Source: Vezdaea acicularis (taxonomy: Eukaryota). From it: DNA of 64,000 nt. Under the pieces are notes generated by a model, which saw only the letters and a list, made by a program, of their open reading frames with translations, was not told the origin of the DNA and did no database searches. Shown here piece by piece: positions 1 to 48,492 of this stretch; the first letter of the stretch is position 1, and each line of letters begins with the position of its first letter. Location of the stretch: positions 1-64,000 of the forward strand of contig JAPEUI010000005.1 in the NCBI GenBank assembly GCA_026025075.1, read 5' to 3'. Position numbers and translations under genes: made by a program.

Positions 1-1560
1 TAAGGCTTCCTACTGCGGGACACCGTATCTGGCGCGCAAACTGAACTTGGTTCGTATAAACTCTTTGGGCGTCCGACATGACACTAATATGATGCGATAG
101 ATCCTTATGATGCACATCAAACAGACACTGCCTGATATCAAGGCTCGGATCTCTTCTTCTCTACAAAAATATACTGCTGAACTAAATACCCTGGGCGACT
201 CGATGCTAGGCAACAGCGCCAACATCGTCCTTAACATCATCACAGAGTTCTGCAACGAATATCGGACAGTCCTAGATGGCAACAACCAAGAGCTATCAAG
301 CCTTGAACTCTCAGGCGGCGCTAGAATCAGTTTTGTTTTCCACGAGCTGTACTCCAATGGTGTCAAGGCTATCGATCCTTTCGATCAGGTGAAAGATATC
401 GACATTCGGACTATACTCTACAACTCTTCCGGCTCCTCACCTGCACTCTTTGTGGGCACCACTGCATTTGAGCTCATTGTAAAGCAACAGATCAAACGGC
501 TTGAGGAACCCAGCCTTAAATGCGTCTCGCTCGTCTATGACGAACTCGTCCGAATCCTGACCCAGCTCCTCAATAAACAACTCTTCCGCCGATATCCCCA
601 ATTGAAGGAGAAGTTCCATCTTACCGTAATCGCCTTCTTCAAGAAGACCATGGACCCGACGAACAAGCTCGTGCGAGATTTGGTCTCCATGGAGTCTTGC
701 TATATCAACACTGGCCACCCAGACTTCCTAAATGGACATAGGGTTAGTAATTTATCCCCATTTATGTACACTGCGCGGAACAGAGCGCCTCATTCCATCT
801 CTGTTTGAATGAGAGTATCTAACCAATCTGCGTAACAATCAGGCAATGGCAATCGTCAACGACCGCCACAACCACAGCAAACCAGTGCAAGTCGACCCCA
901 AAACAGGAAAACCCCTACCGCCCCAGCAGGGCGCCGTGCAGGGCCGCTCAAGCCCCACCATGGACTCCATGAGCGACCCGAACGGCGGCTTCTTCGGCAG
1001 CTTCTTCGCCAGCAAGAACAAGAAGAAGATGGCGGCTATGGAGCCGCCGCCTCCCTCGCTGAAAGCTAGTGGTACGCTAAGCGAGCGCGAGGGCGTCGAG
1101 GTCGAAGTTATTAGTGAGTTTTTTTTCCTCTGTGGTGGCTTGAGGTTTTTGTGTATGGTGCAACGGACTGATTTGTGTTTAGAGCTCCTGATTAGCTCGT
1201 ACTACAATATCGTGCGACGGACGATGATCGATATGGTCCCGAAAGCCGTCATGCTTAACCTCGTACAGTGAGTCCTTTCCACACAACCTTTCTCCCACCC
1301 CTTCTTCCCCCCTCCGTCCCTTTCATTCTCTCTTTTCCCCCCAACATCAAGTGTATCTCTGACTAACCCGCCCTTTTTCCCCCTCGCACAGATTCTCCAA
1401 AGACGAAATGCAGCGCGAACTCCTCGAGAACATGTACCGTAGCAACGACTTCGACGACCTCCTCAAAGAAAGCGATTACACCATTCGTCGCCGCAAGGAG
1501 TGCCAGCAGATGGTCGAGAGCCTCAGTCGTGCCAGCGAGATCGTTAGTCAGGTACAATGA
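1..1560 (+). CDS. VPS1: Dynamin-like GTPase Vps1, middle and GED domains; 5' part lies outside the window
   Basis: Translation CGTPYLARKLNL|ILMMHIKQTLPDIK, ELSGGARISFVFHE, YINTGHPDF and C-terminal DMVPKAVMLNLVQ|FSKDEMQRELLE...RASEIVSQVQ* (TGA 1558-1560). GT-AG introns at about 50-100, 743-842, 1115-1182 and 1268-1391. Confidence 0.95.
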
Positions 1561-2239
1561 GCGGAAAATTCGTTGGGATCGTGGACTGGTGGGTTGTTGG
1601 TGTTGTGCTTCTTCTCTTGTTTGGGGGACAAGCTCGGTGCGTAGGGGATGAGGGGGAGTGGTGGAGTGTGCTGGACTGGTGTGGGGTGGAATGGATGGAG
1701 CGGGGCAGGGGTTAGACAAGTCCGGTGGATGACCGTGTTTGACGGTGCGATATGCCCGAACGCACCGGCAAGTCGATATCTGAGCGCGAGTATGTGTGTG
1801 CGTGGATCTGATACCTAGAATGCTTGGTTCCTATTCTGTTGCTCCCCTCCTTCGGGACATCATCTTTCTTTCCCTTATCTCAATCCGGACCCCCCGGGCC
1901 CCATGTGCTAGGCTAGGCGTCCGTAGGTAGATTCACAATGTCATCACAGTTAGCGCGACCATACACGTCCTCTTTCTTTAGCTGCTAGTTTTCTCTCTAG
2001 CTTCGTGTTTTGGAACAGTGGGGATCGTGACTTAACTCGTGGACTAACATGAATACGCAAGGAGCCTTGAGTGCAAGATACGCCTTACTTCCGGCCCTGT
2101 ACATACGTGGACTTTGACTTTATGCATCGAGTATTGGGGTTGGAGGTAATGGACGATCTTGCGAGCCCGCCCGCTAAGACTTCAAGAAAAAGAGGGGGGG
2201 GTGAGCCTACGACGCAAGATCAATGGAACAATAATCGAG

Positions 2240-2660
2240 CCGCTCACGTGGAGGAAGGGGGAAGTAACGTGGCCCTTAAGTTTTTGCGGTGGGTGTTGCG
2301 GGGGAATGACTTCATACCCAGCTAATATCCGGCCGCTTCGCCGCGGGACATTTGCTTCATGATCGGGCATCGCCATATAATGAAACGGGATAGAAAATTG
2401 AACCGCTCACGTGGTGTGAGGGGCAAGTAACGTGGCTCTTGAGATTTTGCGTTCGGCCATGCAGCTTCATCCGCAGCAATCATGCAGCCTTTTCGCTGTC
2501 CGGCTTTAGCTCCACGGTCGAGGAAGGCATGAGATGGTAAATTATGAAGCAAAAGGATGAGTTGGAGAGAGCTATCGCGGGATGGGAAAGGCGACGAGAA
2601 TGTGGAAGACTCACGTTACTCTACCCCTTCTGCACGTGCCCCTGAGATTTCGTGTCGGAG
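2240..2660. repeat. Three related ~50-bp cassettes, each CACGTG-N15-AACGTG or its inverse
   Basis: Cores at 2245-2271, 2408-2434 and 2612-2638, with similar downstream flanks (gcccttaagtttttgcg / gctcttgagattttgcg / cccctgagatttcgtg). Confidence 0.8.
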
Positions 2661-2714
2661 TTTGTAGATTGCCAATCAGATTGTCAATCTGGTGTCGAGA
2701 TTGATGATCTTGGA

Positions 2715-3670
2715 AACCTCACGTGGGGTGGCACTGCTGCACGTGGTCGAAGTGGCTCACAAAAAGGCATTTAGCGCTAGTGAAAGAAGATGGATAACCT
2801 TCTTTCACGTCATCCTGAGAGTCACAGTTTCCTAATTAGGAAGCGTCTTCAGCTTCATACTGCTCGCCGTGAGGATTGGAATTCAAGATCTCATCCAGCT
2901 CAAGGGGGCCGGCTCGAAGGATGCTCAAAACGCAACGCAAAAGTGAAAAGGCCACCTGTGGCAGCGCTGCCGCACGTGGTTGAAGTGGCTCACAAAAAGT
3001 CGTTTTACGCTAAAGAGAGAAGATGCGTAACCTTCTCCCAACGTCGAGCTGGAGGGCAAGACTTCCTAATTAAGAACTATCTTCAGCTTCATGCTGATGG
3101 CTTTGAAAATGGGAATGCAAGACCTCATCCAGCTCCGGGAGGGAGCGGCCTGGAGAATGCTCAAAGTGTGACGCAAAATTGAAAGGCCTACGTGCAGCGG
3201 CACATCGCACGTGGTTTAAGTGGTTCACAAAAAGTCATTTTACGCTAGTGAAAAGAGATGACTAACCTCCTCCAATGTCGAACTGGAGGGCAAAACTTCC
3301 CGATTAGGAAGTATCGTGAGCTTCATGCTCTTGCGGTGAGAATGGGAATTGCAACTCAAGAACTGATACAAAGTAGAGAGGTGTCCTGGAAGGTGACTAA
3401 AACGCAACGCAGAAGTGGAAGGCCCACGTGCGGCAGCGCCGCCGCACGTGCTTAAAGTGGTTTACAAAAAGCCGTTTTACGCTAGAGAAAGAAGATAGGT
3501 AACCTTCTCCCGATGTCGAGCAGGAGGGCAGAACTTCCCGATTAGGAAGCATCGTGAGCTTCACGCTGCTGCGATGAAAACGATAATTCGATTTCATGGA
3601 CTGATGCAAAATAGGAAAGCGTCCTGAGAGATGCCCAAAACGCAACGCAGAAATGGAAAGCTCACGTGCT
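2715..3670. repeat. Diverged tandem array of four ~235-bp units rich in palindromes
   Basis: Anchor GCACGTG-..-AAGTGG-..-ACAAAAAG recurs at 2739, 2972, 3207 and 3444 (periods 233, 235, 237). Shared blocks include CGCTA, TAACCT, TTCC..ATTA.GAA, AGCTTCA and, in three units, AAAACGCAACGCA. Confidence 0.92.
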
Positions 3671-4082
3671 GTCATGTGTTCTTTTTGGCTGATGGGTGGG
3701 CCTCTCTGCTTGGACGTCGAGGGGGAACACCCCGAGGATCTGGTCAAGCGAGGTATCGTTGAGTCTATATCTGTGGTAGAGGTACCTTCGGCCTAGGGCA
3801 GACCCGGTCAGTGAGGGGTAAGACTAATATATTCGGACTTGGAACGTTATGTGATTACCTCAAATACCCTATACCTATGTGTGACGTTTCCCAAACTGAG
3901 CGGCTGCCTTTCCTCCTGAGGTCATATATGCTCGAAGTGGCAGATTATACATTTCCCATACTAGCGAAAGGGGTCAGAACATTTTCAGCTATCAGACAGC
4001 TCCCAACTCTTATGTAGGCTGTGGGACTTACTCTACCTATATACAGCACCGCATTAACTCAATGCCTTCCTCCGCTTTCGAC

Positions 4083-5298
4083 TTATGGTAAGACAATATA
4101 CCGCTCCAAGCTCTTTGGGATTGCCCCCAACAGGCCCTTACTCTCCAGCCACTTCCTCGAGAAAAGCCTGTCGGCATACCTGTACGCGCCATCACACAGC
4201 ATTGTGACGACTGTCTTTCCTGGGCCCAGCAACTCTGCAACCTCCTTTGCCGCGACGACATTGAGTGCACTGCTCGCGCCCAAGTACAAGCCCTCCTCGT
4301 CTAAACAGCGGTAGACCATCTCGATGCTCTTCTCATCCGAGATATGCAATGCTCCGTCCACACGCTCAATCTCCATTGCCAAGTTGTCCGTCACACGCCC
4401 TTGCCCGATGCCCTCTGTGATCGAGCTCCCGGTCCTCTCTTTCAGTTTTCCGCCGCTAGTGATATACGAGTGGAGCACACTCCCTGGCGGGTCCGCAAGG
4501 TAGCACTTCACCCTCCCATCCGAGACCGTCTTGAGATATCTCGTAACGCCCGCCAGCGTCCCCCCCGTCCCAGTTGAGCACGTAAACGCATCAATATCTC
4601 CCTTCGTCTGCGCCCAGATTTCCGGTCCCGTGCCCTCTATGTGCGCCTGCGCATTTGCCGTATTGTCGAACTGGTCCGTCCAAATTGCCTTCCCATGCCC
4701 AAGCCTCTCTGCGTGCCGCTTCGCCTGATGATTATAGTTCTCCGGGTTGTCATACGGCACCGCGGGGACGGGGAAGACTTCGGCGCCGAGCAGTCGTAGC
4801 AGGTCGATCTTGCCTTGTGATTGTGTGGCGGGCATATAAATCACAAGCTTGTAGCCCTTAGAGCGGCAGACGTGCGCGAGCCCAATACCGGTGTTGCCTG
4901 CGGTGCCTTCGATCACTGTCCCGCCGGGTTGGAGGGCTCCTGATTCTTCGGCGGCAACGACGAGGGAGAGCGCTGCGCGGTCCTTGACGCTGCCACCTGG
5001 ATTTTGGAATTCGGCTTTGCCAAGTACATTGCAGCCAGTTTGTTCAGAGAGGCGATTGAGGCGAATGAGGGGCGTGTTGCCAATTGCTTCGAGACAGGAT
5101 TGTGAGTTGCGAGGAGACAGGTATTGGGTGCACTATCTGGGTGCACTATCTGGGAAACTTACCTCCTGTGAGACCATGCACTACGCCTTGGGCTTTCGAT
5201 ACTGCAATGCCATAGTGATTTGAGGCCTCCATTTCTGCGGCGGTGGCGGCTGCACGGACGGCAGTGGTGCTGAGCTGCCGCAGACCTGTTCTGAACAT
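4083..5298 (-). CDS. cysB: Cysteine synthase (O-acetylserine sulfhydrylase, PLP-dependent) with a probable mitochondrial presequence
   Basis: [24 protein letters not shown] (PLP lysine), [20 protein letters not shown] and ITEGIG. N-terminus [17 protein letters not shown]. One intron at 5087-5162. Confidence 0.93.
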
Positions 5299-5696
5299 CA
5301 CCACTGATCCCAGTGTAGTAGAGTGCGATAATGGCGGTAAAGAAAGTGGTAGGGTCCTAAAAAATCTGCCATAAATTTTGCCCGTTCGTAGGTCATCGAT
5401 GTCGCAATTCTGCGGTTGACCAAACGAGGATAAGCGCATGACAGGGGTCGGTGAGTTTATCTTAGCGTCGTTGCATAGTGTTTGTTTACGTTGACAAGGA
5501 TGACCTCCGAGAAATGCGATGACCTTGAATTAGATACCGACAGAACGTACAATTCTTTCCAAAGCGCATGCGAAGCTTACAAGGCGACAGCTCTTCACCT
5601 AATATATTTGGAGCAGTATTGCTCTCTCTAAAGCGATCATCTGCGACCAAAGCTTGTCGAGCTTCACCCTGAAAGTTTGGAGATTGTGTACTCAAG

Positions 5697-8600
5697 ATGC
5701 CGGGCCGCATCTCTACTCGATCGCGACAGTCCATACCGACGAGCGGCCTCTCTAGTAAAGCATCCTCTCAGACGCTTAATAACCGCCAGTCCAATTCTTC
5801 ACGAGTCTCATCACCAGCCGTCACGATCCCCGAAGATGGCCCGACGTCGAACGTGCGCATCCAGGTTTGTGCCATCTTCGGAGATGCCCAGCGCACAATA
5901 GCAGGACATCGCAAGCTGGCAGTGAACTTGCGCAAAGTACAAGAGAGGTGCTGCTACGAGCCGGTGAGGATAAAGCCGAAGAAGGGAGAGTCCCAGGAAG
6001 AGGATGGCATGGGTGAGCAGGACTTCAATGCCGAGGTTTTGCGGTGTACGCTGAGGCTGCTGGGAGTAAAGAAGAGTGAGACCGCAGCAGATCGAGTGAT
6101 CAGGTTTCTCGGGCTCTTCTTGAAGCATGCGAGTGACAAAGGTGCAAGCTGTCCATCACCCTCCCTGACCTTCCCACCTGACAATATGCAGATATATCAC
6201 TCCTCCCTCAACCACCTTCAGAAGACGACGTCTACCCAGAAACACCTTCAACTCGCCTCACTACTCTCCTTCTAAGCACCATCCTACCCTTTCTCAACTC
6301 CAAAGAAAAGACTGTCCGCTACCGCACCACCCAGATAGTCTCCCATACGATCAACACCGTCGACTCCATCGATGACGACCTGTTCCACCTTCTCCGACTC
6401 TCCCTCCTAAAGCGCCTCCACGATAAAGAACCAATGGTGCGCGTCCAAGCGGTCCTAGGTCTCGGCCGCCTCGCCGGCAACGAAGCCGATGACGATGAAC
6501 AGGAAGACAGCGACTTCTCCATGACCTCTGATCACGGCAGCGGGCTGCTCGAGCGGCTCCTCGAAGTGCTCCAGAACGACCCAAGCGCCGATGTGCGCCG
6601 CTCGCTCCTCCTCAACCTTCCACTCACGCCCGGCACGCTGCCCTTCCTCCTCGAGCGCGCCCGCGACCAAGATCCAGCCACCCGCCGGGCGCTTTACTCG
6701 CGCCTGTTACCCGCGCTAGGCGACTTCCGCCACCTGAGCCTGAGCATGCGTGAGAAGCTGCTGCGGTGGGGCCTTCGCGACCGCGACGAGAACGTGCGCA
6801 AGGCGGCCGGGAAGCTCTTCCGCGAACGCTGGATCGAGGACTGTGCTGGGACGCTCGCCGCCACTGATGACACCGGTGGAAAGCCCAAAGAAGGCGAGGC
6901 GCAGCCGCCAAACTTCGAGGGTTTGCTCGAACTGCTCGAGCGCATTGATGTCGTCAACTCGGGCGTGGAGAACGGCGTGGCGCTCGAGGCTATGAAAGGC
7001 TTTTGGGAGGGGCGCGCGGACTATCGCAATGCCGTCGTGTTCGACCAGGAGTTCTGGGGAAGCTTGACGGCCGAGTCGGTCTTCATGGCGCGATCGTTCA
7101 ACTCGTTCTGTCGTGACGCCGGCGAGCACGGAAAATACGATGACCTCGTCGACGAGAAGATGCCAGAAGTCACCGCGCTGGCCTTCTACCTCGAGCGCTA
7201 TCTTGCCGCGCTCATGACCTCGCTGGCTGCAGCGAAGAATCCGCCGACTGAGGGAGCAGAAGAAGACGTCGATCCCGTGGAGGCTGAGTTTATCGTCGAG
7301 CAGCTCTTGCATATCGCCAGCACGCTCGACTACAGCGACGAAGTGGGGCGCCGGAAGATGTTCACGCTGCTCCGCGAGACGCTCGCGATGCCTGACTTGC
7401 CTGATGAGGTCACGCGGCTGGTCGTCTCCGTGTTACGGGACGTGTGCGGCGGCACGGAAGATGCGGAGCGCGAGTTCTGCGCTGTGGTCCTCGAGGCCGT
7501 GGCTGAGGTGCACGACACGATTATGGACCCTGAGGCTGACGTCGAAGGCGGAGAAGACGAAAGCTTCCACTCCGCTCGCTCCGAACTGAGCATCACGCCG
7601 ACTAAAGCCTCGATACCGTCCAAGAAAGCACCGAAAGGGGGGCTGGAGGAGGAAGCTGAAGAAGACCCGGACGCCGCGGCCGACGCAAAGGCCATCAAAG
7701 AAATTCTCGTCAACCTCAAATGCCTCCTCATCGCACAGGCAACGCTAAGCCACGTCTACACGCCACTCCAGAGCAACCCTTCCCTGCTCAACCTCCTCAA
7801 CAACCTCATCATCCCCGCCGTCCGCTCGCATGAGGCGCCCATCCGTGAGGCCGGGCTGCGTTGCCTAGGCCTGTGCTGTCTGCTCGACCGCTCCCTCGCG
7901 GAGGAGAACCTCGGCCTGTTCCTACACTGCTGGGCGAAAGGGAGCGAAGCCTTGCAAGAAGAAGTCCTCGGTGTCGTCGCGGATCTCCTGCTCAGCCACG
8001 GGCCAGGCTTGCTCGCCGGTGACCCTGCGATGACGGCGACGACAACGGCGACGCCCGGCGCCAAAGAAGCCCCCGCCGTCGCGAGGCAGGTCAGTAAGAT
8101 GTATACGCGCGCCCTGCGCTCTACGTCCGTGGATGTGGCGGGGATGGCTGCCATCGCGCTGTGCAAGCTACTCCTCAGCCAGGTGTTGCGAGAGCCGGAA
8201 CTGCTGAAGCAGCTCATCATCGCGTACTTCGATCCCGAAACGAAAGGCAACCTCAGGCTGCGCCAAGCGCTGAGTTATGCGCTACCGGTGTTTAGTCATT
8301 CGCGTAAGGAGAATATGCGGAGAGTGGGAGAGGTAGTGGGAGGGGTCGTGCGCGGGGTGGTGAGTAGGTGGGAAGAAGACGGCGGGGAGGAAGGCGAGGA
8401 AGGCGTCAATTGGGGAGTCCTTGGAGGAGTATTGGCGGAGTGGACGGACGAGCGGAGGGGCGTGTGGAACGTCGAAAAGCTGGGTGGAATGAGCCTCACA
8501 GAAGGCGATCGAGATGCCGATAGAGACGCCGAGGAAGCCAGCGTTCACCTCACCCTCGCGCTCGACACGCTCGAGCGTCTCAACGAGAAGGGTCTCGGAA

Positions 8601-9081
8601 GTAAGCCTTATCCCTCTCCCTAATCTCCTTTTTGGCAGGACGACAGACTAATGTCCCCGTAGAAGAAGAACGCAAAACCCTCGCCTCCCTCCTTTCGAAG
8701 CTACACCTCGCGCCCAACAACCCTCCTGCCACACTCCTCGCACTGCAGACCCTCCTCGAGGAGTCGCTCGCGAGCCGCGTCTTCTCGGACGCGGCGGGAC
8801 GTAACGCCCTGCTTAAGCTAAATGCCAGCGTGGCCAAGATCCTAGCGGCGAAGGGTGTAGCAGAGGTTAAGGGGACGCAAGAGGCAAAGGAGGGGGCTGA
8901 GGAGGAGGGTTTGGATGAAGAGGTCGAGGAGGTCACAACGGAGGTGGAGGAGCAGGTGGTCGGAGATGACGGGCAGGAGGGAGTGGGAGGGATGGACCGT
9001 CTGTCGACCGAAAAGGACGTGGTTGATTCGTTGGTGGATGAACTGCTTTCTGATGGGGAAGACGAGACGGGCGGGTTTTAG
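5697..9081 (+). CDS. YCG1: Condensin non-SMC subunit G (Ycg1/Cnd3/CAP-G), HEAT repeats
   Basis: IFGDAQRTIAGHRKL, LQNDPSADVRR, LLERARDQD, LDYSDEVGRRKMF and LRQALSY motifs. Introns at about 6142-6191 and 8601-8661. Confidence 0.92.
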
Positions 9082-10050
9082 AGTTATCATGCTGTGCGTT
9101 CTTTGCTGTGCGTCTTTCCGATTCGATTTCTGCAGGCTTGCGGCGTGTACTACCAGTCAAGATATCCTCAATCAGCGCGACACGATACACTCCCGACCAC
9201 ATCATGAGAGAAGAAGCTTTACAATTTCGCAATAATTAAAGGTACAACCTTACATCCCGGCCTACACCCGACCCAGCAAAATACCCAGCTACAGTAGAAG
9301 CCTCCCTATACCCCGAAGCTACCATGCACTCCCCACACCACCCAAGGTATAAAGCCATCGCTATCGCTCCACCCCTTAAAACCCCCTACACCTCCCCCCC
9401 CCCTTTTTTTCCCAGAACCATGTCTTTGTCCATACCCATTACATATTGTCCGCAAGTGAAGTGGTATCTTGTCCAACCAATGTTCCGAAGAGAAAAGCCC
9501 TCCCGCCGAGCAGCCGCAGCAAAACGCGAGGAAATGCAAGAGTGTGGCGAACGTGAAGAGAAGAAAAAGAAACCGCTTGGGGTGATGGTGTAGAATACGG
9601 CCACGTCGTGCGAAAGCGAGGTGTGTATTAAAGAAAAACGAGTTGAGAAGAGTGGCCTGGTAGCCAGGAGGTGCGAGAACAATGCACCAGGGTGGACTGA
9701 AAAGAGAAAAGGAGGGGCAAGAATGACAGAAAAGCGAAAGGAAGATCTCAATTTGGTTCCACAACAGCAGCAGCAGCAGCAACACTTTTGATATCCCACC
9801 AACACCAACCCGTCTGCAATGCTACCCGCTTGCCCCGGATACAATTCATCGTCCCGTTTCCGTTTTGCAAATGACAGTGAGTTGCTTGTAGAATGACGCA
9901 CGCAGAGTCGAGGATAAAACCAGAATTCCGCAGGCTACCTTTATCACCCACCGCCCCACGCGCCTTCGCCGAGTTCATGCAATTTGTTATCAGCCGCGTT
10001 TTTTTCTTCTTTTCTTTTGTATATATGGTATACGGTGAGCGAGTGAGGGC

Positions 10051-45364: not shown

Positions 45365-46772
45365 AGGTGAGGTTGTCAATGGGAATTTTAGACTGGCTAT
45401 CATGGGTGATGGTGGCGTCTGGCGCTCTACTAGGGGCGGTACATATTGAGCGGTCACGAAAACGCGTTGGGAGTTCCGATGTCACGATAAAGAAGCGCGT
45501 CATGTCCTCGCGCAGTTGTACATATTTGATCCGCGCAACATTGAATGTAAATCTCAATTTTGTACATTTGCTTTTCTTGAATGCAAGAAAAGTCTGCTAC
45601 TACTGTTCCGGTGTTTTTTCTAGCATTCTTCAAGCCATTGAAGGAATTAAGCTCTCTCTCTAGAGACCCAGACGTGGTACGTAATGCTCTCGCCTTGTCT
45701 CATATGATGTAGCTATCCACCCTCCGATGGATGGCGCTCTCTCTTCCCTATTGAAGTCCTTAGCTTACTGCAAGGTGAAGTGACAGGCCGGGAGTTCTCA
45801 TTCACATGACTGCAAACGCTACTTCAGTCCCTGCAGTGATGCAGCCTCATTACAGCATGGCAGGGGGCGGCTCGTCATGTGTTGTGTCGAGTTAGTGCGT
45901 GTTCAGAGCGCGCTTTGTTTCAGGGTCAGTAATCTCAACGTTCAGAAGTGAGTTCACGTGGACAACACTCAGCCCACAACACCGGTGTCAGATCATGCCT
46001 GAACACCGCTAGGACAACGTGGCGTCATACTGAACGTTGATCTGAACACACGACAGCCGCGTGTGTGTGTTGAGCGTCGCCTATAAAAGGCCGCTCACCC
46101 CCCCGAGTCCTGGTTCTTCTCTTTTTTTCCCTAGGCCTGGCAGTCACCTCCTCCGACTGTCTGTGCCACCCACGCCCGGCACAGTAGATGGGCTCACCCC
46201 ATCTACTGTGCCAACCCCCTCTCTCTTCCCCTCTATATATATATATACATAAACACCAGAACGTCTGCTTCTTCCGCCCCATTGCGGCAAACCATCTCAA
46301 ACCAAACCATGGTTTGTTTGCTTTGGGGTGGAAAACTCCATTTGAGCCACTTCAGTTCGAAGTGGGGTCTGAATAGACTTTAAACTATCACAACTTCGTC
46401 GGGAGCTAGAGGAGGACGAGGTTACCACGTCCCCCTCGCAGGGAGAGCTAGTTCCGCTCTTCTTGCTAGGCGGACAATTCCTCGGCAATGATCTCGTTCC
46501 CCACTTCCTGGACCAGAAATCGGTCCCCTCGCAGGAGGGCAGGAGGAGCGGGGGAAACGATCCACACCCCGCAGCAGGAGCCGGTTCCCCTGTTAGCCAC
46601 GCCGCTAACCACCCCCTCTGCTTGAAGATCTTTATATCACAGTGGGGAGCCGGCTCCGCTCTCCTCGCCAAGCAAGCCTGCCTGGAAGAAACCGACGCCA
46701 AACTGATCCTCAAGTCGAGATTGGGGTCCGCCTGCCTTGTTCGACAACGGGAATAAGATCATCTCTTCAGAT

Positions 46773-46920
46773 CGTCCGCCACGAAACCATGACCGCCAGA
46801 CGCTCCCCGTTCGCCGCCACGAAACCATGACCGCCAGACGCCTCCCGTTCGCCGCCACGAAACCATGACCGCTAGACGCCTCCCGTCCGCAACGAAACCA
46901 TGACGGCCAGATGCCTCCCC
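46773..46920. repeat. 38-bp minisatellite, ~4 copies
   Basis: GAAACCATGAC at 46783, 46821, 46859 and 46894 (periods 38, 38, 35). Confidence 0.92.
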
Positions 46921-47529
46921 GCCCTCTCGTCGCCCTCTCATCGAAAGACAATCGGCCCATGTTACATGTTCATCATTGGGCCCTTCTTCAGCAGCAAACC
47001 AATCGAAACCGAACGCCTGCAAGAACGAAGGTCTCCTCGCCCTCATCGGCGACTCCTGGGCTCATGTTCGGACGCCTTCCGAATGTTTATCCTGCGTCAA
47101 GCCCTCCGAACGTTCGTGCAGACCAAGTCGTTTTCCGTCAAACTGAACTTGTCATCTTACGTCTCGGCATGCCTCGCCAACAAGTCAATCGAAACAGAAA
47201 ACTCCCAACATCCAAACCCAAGCGTCTTCCAGAGTTCAAAGCCTCGACGCCCTACGCACGACTATACCCACTAGCCTCGACCTCTGAGGAGCCGTCCGAA
47301 ACGACGTTAAACTAACTTTATATATATAACACGCGGAGAGAGGCCTCCTTAGAGCTCACCACTTCTACGCCGAGACTGGAAAGTCTATAACTTCAAAAAG
47401 ACGTCGGGGCGCTGGTTGCAGCCAGTAAAAGAAGACAGGGCTGCTAGGAGACAAGCCAAGGGGCTTGGTCTCTTCTTTCCCCGACTTTAGGGCGGCTGTT
47501 CAACCAGTCGGGACAACGCCCGGTCGGGG

Positions 47530-47935
47530 CCCCGTCGCCGTTCCGGAGAGCTCTCCAGTCCAGCCATTGATGTACTGGATGGGCCTAACCGAGGACGGAC
47601 GTGGGAGTTAACGCCTTCTTGCCCCACCTATGGGGGGCTGCTTTCTTGTCCCACCTAAGGGGCTTGGGGCCCTACAGTTCAGCCATCGATGGCTTCTGGA
47701 TGGGCCTGAGCGAGGATGAAAGAAGGGGTTTGCGCCTTCTTCTCCTCCCCATGTGGGTCCACCATCTCATAACACATGGGGGCCTGTCGTCGTTCCGGAG
47801 AGCCCTCCAGTTCAGCCGTGGATGGCTTCTGGATTGTGATGAGAGAAGACGGAATGAAGGTGTTTTCGCTCTTTTGTCCCACCTATGTGGGACCGCTTTC
47901 TCGTCCCACCTATGGGGGGCTGCCTCTTGCCAACC
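47530..47935. repeat. Degenerate direct repeats (2-3 copies) with internal CCCACCTA sub-repeats
   Basis: GTCG.CGTTCCGGAGAGC.CTCCAGT.CAGCC at about 47534 and 47786; CAGTTCAGCC..GATGGCTTCTGGAT also at about 47675; CCCACCTA four times. Confidence 0.8.
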
Positions 47936-48134
47936 CTCCATGTGGCTGGCTGGTGGGGGCTTTCGAAGAGGAGCCAAAGAAGCGACGGCGGCTGGGAGCG
48001 GCTGGGAGCAACGATCAGATGTTGCTGGCGGAGACGGTGGAAGAGGCGTCCGAAGAAGCGGCTTCAATATACTACGATCTGGGACATTTTGCTTTTAAGG
48101 AATCTTTCGTCACGATACCAAAAACCCCGTCTCC

Positions 48135-48492
48135 ATCTCCTCCATTACAAACTATCGTCCTCTTCTCCTTTCGCCTTCGATGGTACACCGAGCCTCGCCG
48201 CCATCGTCCTGTTCTCCTTTTGCCTTCGATGGTACACCGAGTCTCACCCCGCTCCTCCATTACAAACTATTACCCTTTTCTCCTTTCGCATTCGACAACT
48301 ACTAAATCACTACGAGCTTCAAAGTCGTCCAACAACAAAAATCTACCAGTACCAAGTGCGGTGTTCAACAGCGATTACTCAAACGAACGATGTCGCCCCC
48401 TCTTCTCCCTTCCTCGACCACAACAACCGATGTTCACCAGCAATCACCCAAACGAACGGTATCGCTCCCGCTTTCTTCCTTCCTCGACTGCA
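48135..48492. repeat. Nested short direct duplications
   Basis: CTCCATTACAAACTAT twice; TTCTCCTTT.GCCTTCGATGGTACACCGAG twice; GTTCA.CAGC.AT.AC.CAAACGAACG...CTTCCTCGAC twice. Confidence 0.82.

Follow-up and report, generated by a model that had tools for sequence, protein, structure and literature searches.

A repeat array between two convergent genes

The window, that is, the whole 64-kb stretch of DNA that was analyzed, opens with the 3′ part of a gene for a dynamin-like GTPase (positions 1–1560, forward strand, stop codon at 1558–1560), which matched Dynamin_M (E 1e−70 on 101–805) and which we take to be VPS1, a name that goes back to the original prediction and to features of the family. 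Beyond a 2.5-kb intergenic gap lies a cysteine synthase gene (4083–5300, reverse strand, 5′ end approximate; PALP, E 8e−72), whose best named homologues were those of Stictis (86%) and Gomphillus (85%); homologues from many further classes reached 82–85%. The host is a Pezizomycotina fungus, and an assignment to the Ostropomycetidae is no more than a guess. As predicted, the two genes converge on the array described here, and the gap that holds it has a GC content near the window mean and a CpG observed/expected ratio of about 1. The gene for the condensin subunit Cnd3/Ycg1 (5673–9081, forward strand) lies 2 kb from the array, probably by coincidence. A second repeat region of the window, at 46178–48488, contains a 35-bp palindrome (46178–46212) and a 38-bp tandem repeat (46776–46921); diverged direct repeats were also seen in the window at 47526–47922 and 48137–48488.

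The whole array (2233–3680; 50% GC, CpG observed/expected 0.96) comprises three upstream cassettes, four units of about 235 bp, and a terminal dyad with a short spacer. Tandem Repeats Finder reported a period of 234–238 bp with 3.2–3.6 copies and 74–75% matches at 2731–3669, and the original count of four units spaced by 233, 235, and 237 bp was borne out at about 75% identity. When the units were aligned, 123 of 241 columns were invariant, and the units were separated by indels of 1, 2, 3, and 5 bases. The E-box CACGTG is strongly concentrated here: 10 of its 16 copies in the 64-kb window fall within 1424 bp (binomial P 2e−13). The E-box pairs 13–14 bp apart in the units, the three cassettes, and the terminal CACGTG at 3663 are all present as originally described. 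Beyond that description, we found an outer motif, GCAACGCRAAAA, flanking many of the pairs, a partner for the terminal E-box (CACGTG-N4-CATGTG, 3663–3678), and a family of related sites throughout the genome.

Cassette 1 (2245–2292, forward strand) has E-boxes at 2245 and 2266, the second reading AACGTG, across a 15-bp purine-rich spacer, and a right outer motif at 2281–2292 (family model match, E 2.5e−3). Cassette 2 (2384–2455, forward strand) is a near-complete dyad with E-boxes at 2408 and 2429 (15 bp), a right outer motif at 2444–2455, and a weak left one, and it matched a model built without the window units at E 1.4e−4. Cassette 3 (2612–2658, reverse strand) is an inverted E-box pair at 2612 and 2633 (15 bp) with an outer motif at 2647–2658. 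The four larger units all run forward. Unit 1 (2715–2947; E-boxes at 2720 and 2740, 14 bp) has no outer motif on either side; unit 2 (2932–3183) has a left outer motif at 2932–2943 and E-boxes at 2953 (CACCTG) and 2973 across a 14-bp spacer; unit 3 (3168–3419) has a left outer motif at 3168–3179 and E-boxes at 3189 (TACGTG) and 3208 across 13 bp; and unit 4 (3404–3657) has a left outer motif at 3404–3415 and two exact E-boxes at 3425 and 3445 (14 bp; model match, E 1e−3). Units 2–4 have kept the left outer motif, and the right one is absent. The terminal dyad (3642–3678, forward strand) consists of an outer motif at 3642–3653, CACGTG at 3663, 4 bp, and CATGTG at 3673 (E 2.4e−4). In total, four places in the array matched the family model built without window units (E 1e−4 to 3e−3), and all seven half-sites of at least 14 bits in the 64-kb window fell at 2266–3668, with none in three shuffles.

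The original prediction also described a second palindrome in each unit and likened the layout to a budding-yeast point centromere (CDEI, 80 bp, CDEIII). The four copies (2828–3549) start where predicted, at 2828, 3062, 3296, and 3534, although the consensus given fails for the first copy, which begins with T instead of C. Genome-wide, only these four sites were found, all in the four window units, and in conservation the palindrome scores barely above the sequence around it (0.82 vs. 0.76); its constant layout is therefore attributable to shared descent, a possibility the original prediction had itself raised. The 82–83-bp spacer is, as had been stated, not AT-rich (40–48% GC). The 26-bp GC palindrome and the 235-bp period likewise hold in the window but do not extend to the family, where the median period is 154 bp and the spacer is asymmetric. 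BLAST searches with the array and with unit 4 matched the window only. It is thus the paired E-box motif that is dispersed, and not the 235-bp unit.

A genome-wide family of phased E-box dyads

Exact pairs of the form CACGTG-N13–15-CACGTG occurred 60 times in the assembly (18.95 Mb, 315 contigs), compared with a single match for the reversed control, and 59 of the 60 had a gap of 14 or 15 bp. Over the whole genome, gaps of 1–12 bp yielded 14 exact pairs in all (control 9), six of them at gap 4, and gaps of 16–40 bp yielded 19 (control 10). Relative to about 0.76 matches per other gap, gap 4 was enriched (P 1e−4) and gaps 14–15 were enriched far more. Three of the 60 pairs (C46:65979, C76:16024, and C120:1003, where C and L numbers denote contigs of the assembly and stretches fetched from it) lacked outer motifs and were dropped as chance occurrences.

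Alignment of the flanks showed that the repeated object is a dyad of about 66 bp, in which the outer motif GCAACGCRAAAA is followed by about 9 free bases, TCACGTG, a spacer, and the mirror image. Its half-site is a module of about 30 bp running from the outer motif to TCACGTG, with the outer motif 9–10 bp outside the E-box; in 50 of 61 elements, a T directly precedes the E-box on the left. The central spacer, normally asymmetric and purine-rich, measures either 14–15 or 4–5 bp, which places the E-box centers 20–21 or 10–11 bp apart, at two helical turns or one; both classes coexist within single arrays. Searches with half-site patterns returned 49 and 43 matches, with none in the controls, and revealed new loci, many with the 4–5-bp spacer. 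Facing half-site pairs numbered 7, 3, 21, 39, and 1 at distances of 10, 11, 20, 21, and 22 bp, respectively, and none occurred elsewhere up to 60 bp. In other words, 70 of 71 pairs keep helical phase at 10–11 or 20–21 bp, the remaining one being at 22 bp. Between neighboring dyads, no helical phasing was detected (Rayleigh p 0.27–0.57 at 10.4–10.65 bp; 0.045, uncorrected, at 10.0 bp). The array period has a median of 154 bp (range 96–436, n = 67), 20 of 47 neighboring dyads are less than 147 bp apart, and A- and T-tracts face each other across each inter-dyad linker.

In the alignment of all loci, the dyads were also strand-biased (301 G and 369 A vs. 77 C in the spacer) and were co-oriented within most arrays. 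Two arrangements on contig C1 stand out: three E-boxes at 10-bp steps (L026:4290–4315, locus C1:151789), apparently a 10-bp tandem duplication, and two E-boxes 31 bp apart, accompanied by a single outer motif (C1:210429–210465).

A weight matrix derived from 61 elements outside the window was used to scan the fetched stretches, and a locus was kept if it had at least two half-sites or one of at least 18 bits. The scan yielded 195 half-sites, which group into 43 loci spread over 35 contigs, with 1–17 units per locus and 4 or more units at 13 loci; the figure of 43 is a lower bound. Because most loci were first found by their E-boxes and the matrix was trained on 61 such elements, these counts are partly circular. 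The exact-pair counts at gaps 1–12 and 16–40, the search by outer motif only (see below), and BLAST with a two-unit copy are free of this circularity, and the last returned 21 matches at 10 loci, all of them known dyad arrays. C248:107146 fell below the threshold as a family locus, and an adjacency of contigs C260 and C261 was rejected on the results listed. Control stretches around other genes gave one match in 116 kb and none in 63 kb. That only match in 179 kb of control loci is a degenerate dyad (L091:239–308), which together with a further E-box pair, 11 bp apart (about L091:660–690), lies 0.6–1 kb downstream of the CBF1 gene on C270. A scan of JGI metagenomes gave 25 single matches, none with the left outer motif and none above 24 bits (up to 71 in this genome), and viral contigs gave one family match; we read these as chance, and absence of the family from other fungi does not follow.

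None of the 43 loci lies in a predicted coding segment. By gene orientation, 12 loci are convergent, 18 tandem, and 5 divergent, with 8 unresolved, compared with 19, 28, and 10 for other gaps, in assignments from a simple Markov model of which a few will be wrong; the position of the family is intergenic and without orientation bias. Pfam searches on 122 neighboring frames identified unrelated genes, and genes lie a few hundred bases from the arrays. The mean density is about one locus per 440 kb, with four loci within 132 kb on C1, three within 23 kb on C13, and distances of 11–62 kb between loci on C1, C13, C24, and C113. Large arrays seemed to be more frequent near contig ends, a suggestive impression that is not used as evidence here. 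The arrays have 50–54% GC and show no CpG loss (observed/expected about 1), and an argument from CpG decay was accordingly dropped. A CENP-O gene adjoins the locus at C24:67760, probably by coincidence.

Motif conservation and a candidate binding protein

Within the family, conservation is selective for the motifs: the E-boxes are held and the linkers drift. A pattern containing only the outer motifs gave 31 matches (control 0), representing 28 sites, of which 27 have E-boxes 20–21 bp apart and the 28th belongs to the short-spacer class. At these sites, 50 of 56 E-boxes are exact (8 of 336 bases changed), and the linkers and spacer have consensus identities of 39%, 50%, and 52%. When 16 of the 17 units of the largest array, on C99, were compared pairwise, identity was 0.94 and 0.96 in the E-boxes, 0.59 and 0.56 (ungapped) in the outer motifs, and 0.27–0.43 in the linkers. 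Palindromes are thus better kept than spacers as far as the E-boxes are concerned (94–98% vs. 27–52% for linkers), but only barely for the second palindrome of the window. In one study, three moss-metagenome runs contain contigs that match the window array at about 94–95% identity, and in this one relative the array sits at the same place. None of the 40 listed differences (there are 63 further) falls in the four covered E-boxes, those of cassettes 1 and 2, numbers that are too few for a test.

The genome contains eight bHLH matches, one of which is the orthologue of Cbf1 (E 1e−19 to yeast Cbf1), with an intact His-Glu-Arg basic region across an intron; any of the seven other bHLH genes could encode the dyad-binding protein instead. 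The literature describes a 5′ T flank as selecting Cbf1 over Pho4 (PMC4482085) and yeast Cbf1 dimers as cooperating with a 10.65-bp period and peaks at 11, 22, 32, and 41 bp (PMC7229839). The dyads resemble these cooperative pairs of S. cerevisiae in the helical phase of CACGTG and the 5′ T, with optima of 11 and 22 bp in yeast compared with 10–11 and 20–21 bp here (PMC7229839). They differ from the yeast pairs in that a second motif is included, so that four sites make up a dyad of fixed layout, and in being arranged in arrays, homologous between loci, and without promoter bias.

From the sequence patterns, our leading although tentative explanation is that the family constitutes dispersed, phased platforms for Cbf1 plus a partner, acting as chromatin barriers or transcription roadblocks; for this apparently undescribed kind of chromosome element, a barrier is the likelier role and a centromere the less likely one. 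Two Cbf1 dimers would bind each dyad cooperatively on one face of the helix, and a second factor, a candidate Cbf1 partner, would bind the outer motifs. APSES/KilA-N proteins are encoded in the genome and offer no more than a lead to this factor. Runs of dyads would then form tightly bound, nucleosome-poor blocks serving as barriers or roadblocks between unrelated genes; Cbf1 is described as a transcription roadblock at yeast centromeres (PMC9371891). The units may have spread by transposition or ectopic copying, followed by local tandem duplication, and selection would have kept the sites and their spacing and left the linkers to drift. The window array is best explained as a locally amplified, somewhat decayed member of this family, whose unit would have grown to 235 bp and lost its right outer motif on the way. 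The original proposal of a sequence-defined, bHLH-loading chromatin element is supported by family-wide conservation and phasing, but not in its centromere-like form. Several findings count against the barrier explanation: a density of one locus per ~440 kb is low for an element that would separate genes in general, distances between neighboring dyads lack helical phase, degenerate copies exist (at the CBF1 locus and in unit 1 of the window), and, as expected of a mobile element, the linker is homologous and the 3′ end the same at ten loci.

Mobile elements, centromeres, and other readings

The linkers of those ten loci, all of which contain dyads, are 70–81% identical in BLAST over units of ~150 bp; their 5′ ends vary, they contain variable internal sub-repeats, and 4 of the 8 copies that were aligned carry an AGCGC-like hexamer at each end. 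The homologous linker, the common 3′ end, and the end hexamers suggest mobile spread. The family might accordingly be a selfish non-autonomous mobile element or a dispersed minisatellite, its dyads kept for moving, as sites for a transposase or a host factor, and not for host use, a reading with which the local clustering of loci on C1 and C13, the presence of one Helitron and four MULE-domain loci in the genome, and the position of three loci in a duplicated cassette, upstream of its Ulp1-like genes, also agree. We nevertheless consider it rather unlikely. Even decay is expected of old selfish copies, in contrast to the E-boxes, which far exceed the adjacent linkers in identity; several loci, including the window, have the dyad in common but not the linker; and young near-identical copies occur only inside the duplicated cassette, with no target duplication established. 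No family site was found within 20 kb around the Helitron, within 31 kb around the four MULE-domain loci, or within 19.5 kb around two further Ulp1-like copies, and the Helitron and MULE-domain loci examined yielded no autonomous partner sharing ends. The platform explanation draws support from a duplicated segment present as three paralogous copies, each of which has a dyad at the same position even though the local sequence has been rebuilt each time.

Among known elements, MATE/AMA1 of Aspergillus nidulans is by description similar to the family, being a dispersed Pezizomycotina repeat with clustered inverted short motifs and replicator activity; MATEs differ by description in being multi-kb, Mutator-like, and flanked by target duplications, and in carrying another motif, and no family site lies near the MULE loci of this genome. 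The gypsy Su(Hw) insulator, the rex sites of C. elegans, and the ISX-borne MSL sites, chromatin elements of animals spread by mobile DNA, are likewise clusters of sites for a single factor, orientation-independent and structural in role; they belong to other kingdoms and other factors, and the likeness is one of analogy only. Non-autonomous Helentrons (DINE-1/HINE) are dispersed and non-coding and have central tandem repeats, sub-repeats, and short palindromic ends, as here; differences are that neither 12–15-bp subterminal repeats nor a TT target was shown for the family, that there is no link to the one Helitron of the genome, and that conservation is motif-selective (PMC4067079).

Several repeats and genes were observed in or beside these loci. 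The single Helitron Rep/helicase copy is broken by stop codons (L173:2387–6496, on C267). The Ulp1-like genes are tandemly duplicated, with two Ulp1/C48-like protease domains (PF02902, E 0.003, below the cut-off), and lie at L043:4554–8852 and L043:1–1161 (both reverse strand) and L045:3798–4976 (forward strand), with broken copies on C46 and C243; the ESM Atlas gave no usable match for the protein. L043 also contains a 330-bp inverted duplication (9402–9731, 83%) with two dyads in opposite orientation and a 102-bp palindrome (1744–1845, 90%). A MITE of ~270 bp with 36-bp terminal repeats and at least 40 copies lies in or beside four family loci (L023:3578–3849, L032 about 7290–7530, L043 about 9234–9328, and L045 about 3313–3413), with a 100% twin at C108:2590–2868. 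Scoring of 40 of 69 candidates showed the MITE in the C99 and C33 arrays to be nothing more than a common dispersed family. Its presence beside family loci may mark open chromatin. Other small repeats adjoin the loci on C55, C90, C119, and C160, and right beside the C82 array lies an inverted repeat (L024:3492–5153; arms 87% identical over 427 bp) that contains tandem repeats, along with a 500-bp bin at 18% GC.

Compared with the barrier explanation, a centromeric role appears doubtful. Centromeric units marked by sequence might have arisen in this lineage separately from those of budding yeasts, with mobile-spread, phased Cbf1 dyads recruiting the kinetochore: the large arrays (4–17 units) would be short Cbf1-marked repeat centromeres, one per chromosome, with the small loci as relics, or all the loci would be units of a repeat-based polycentric fungus. 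The 13 loci with at least four units are of a plausible order for a chromosome number, and the median period of 154 bp is of nucleosome scale. We know of no holocentric ascomycete. Cbf1 is described as binding CDEI of yeast centromeres (PMC13017519), and the ~440-kb mean spacing resembles the ~400 kb between dispersed Tyba tandem arrays among genes in holocentric Rhynchospora (PMC10954556). Tyba arrays, however, are ~20 kb long and CENH3-bound (PMC10954556), whereas those here are under 3 kb and heterogeneous. Four loci in 132 kb on C1 and three in 23 kb on C13 do not fit a centromere, nor do arrays of 50–54% GC with genes a few hundred bases away, given that a high AT content and a lack of ORFs are common in the fungal centromeres described so far (PMC7385547). 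The genome also has HP1, Pre-SET, three Argonaute loci, and two matches to the Yippee/Mis18 family, as would be expected with epigenetic regional centromeres.

The likeness to point and proto-point centromeres lies in the Cbf1-type box, the short defined element, and a possible derivation from mobile DNA, Ty5 LTRs being described there as carrying Cbf1 sites (PMC13017519). Of four point-centromere features tested, the Cbf1-type site and its protein were found and three were not: instead of one locus per chromosome there are 43 loci, several per contig; there is no AT-rich CDEII in the spacers or the arrays; and there is no CDEIII at all loci with CBF3, the second palindrome being confined to the window and NDC10_II unmatched (weak evidence, since the control was silent too). 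The symmetric double E-box is a further difference. The original analogy therefore fails on the private palindrome, the spacer composition, the four loci in 132 kb, and the heterochromatin and RNAi genes. The 2.5-kb gap also lacks the long, AT-rich, gene-free repeat block of a Pezizomycotina regional centromere.

Less probable still is that the loci are sequence-assisted replication origins, at which Cbf1 would clear nucleosomes and the A/T tracts of the outer motifs or inter-dyad linkers would position ORC. The loci are intergenic, orientation-independent, and several per contig at 11–62 kb, and tracts face each other across the linkers; against this, the count over 19 Mb reaches only 43. The insertion seen in Orc4 is short, rich in Gly, Ala, and Ser, and by eye not the sequence-reading helix, although the helix region lay outside the alignments; this helix is reported to be absent outside Saccharomyces-related yeasts (PMC7560902). 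Ordinary enhancer-like clusters controlling adjacent genes, in the manner of a Cbf1 regulon, are very unlikely. In yeast, cooperative Cbf1 sites are a normal feature of promoters (PMC7229839), and the sulfur genes are under Cbf1 control (PMC4482085); a cysteine synthase gene adjoins the window array and a degenerate family copy lies 3′ of CBF1 itself. However, only 5 of the 35 resolved loci are flanked by two 5′ ends, compared with 12 that lie between 3′ ends; the window array itself is located on the 3′ side of cysteine synthase, and the locus neighbors have no common pathway.

That the dyads are hairpin RNA genes, or the array a repetitive protein-coding gene, can be dismissed as highly improbable: the elements do fold as ~70-nt hairpins, stabler on one strand (50 of 61), with 140 G-U vs. 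54 A-C mismatches in the arms and a sub-threshold microRNA-model score for one perfect palindrome (Rfam, 7 loci), but the strand difference was equaled by shuffles, the covariation term was −0.33 kcal/mol, no Rfam family reached threshold at the 7 loci and no tRNA was found, and arm covariation was no better than with shuffled partners (inner 136 vs. 131.7 ± 8.4, outer 540 vs. 530.7 ± 8.7; 1000 shuffles). The arms do not covary; therefore, the dyad is not a hairpin, and its symmetry lies in motifs of double-stranded DNA. A 132-aa open frame overlaps units 1 and 2, but the frameshifting 1–5-base indels between units and the lack of a Pfam match for this frame argue against coding, in line with the non-coding character originally proposed.

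The element family is real, probably functional, and apparently undescribed, although its parts are known from yeast; a literature search, mostly without subscription papers, found no such element. To our knowledge, filamentous ascomycetes do not use long sequence-defined chromosome elements, their centromeres being epigenetic and their origins motif-less. A 66-bp, four-site element with quantized spacing at more than 40 loci provides a short list of defined targets, and the dyad predicts a new partner of Cbf1. If the arrays were to bind CENP-A, they would represent a second origin of Cbf1-marked centromeres. As platforms for Cbf1 and its partner, they may show mobile DNA turned into chromosome infrastructure.
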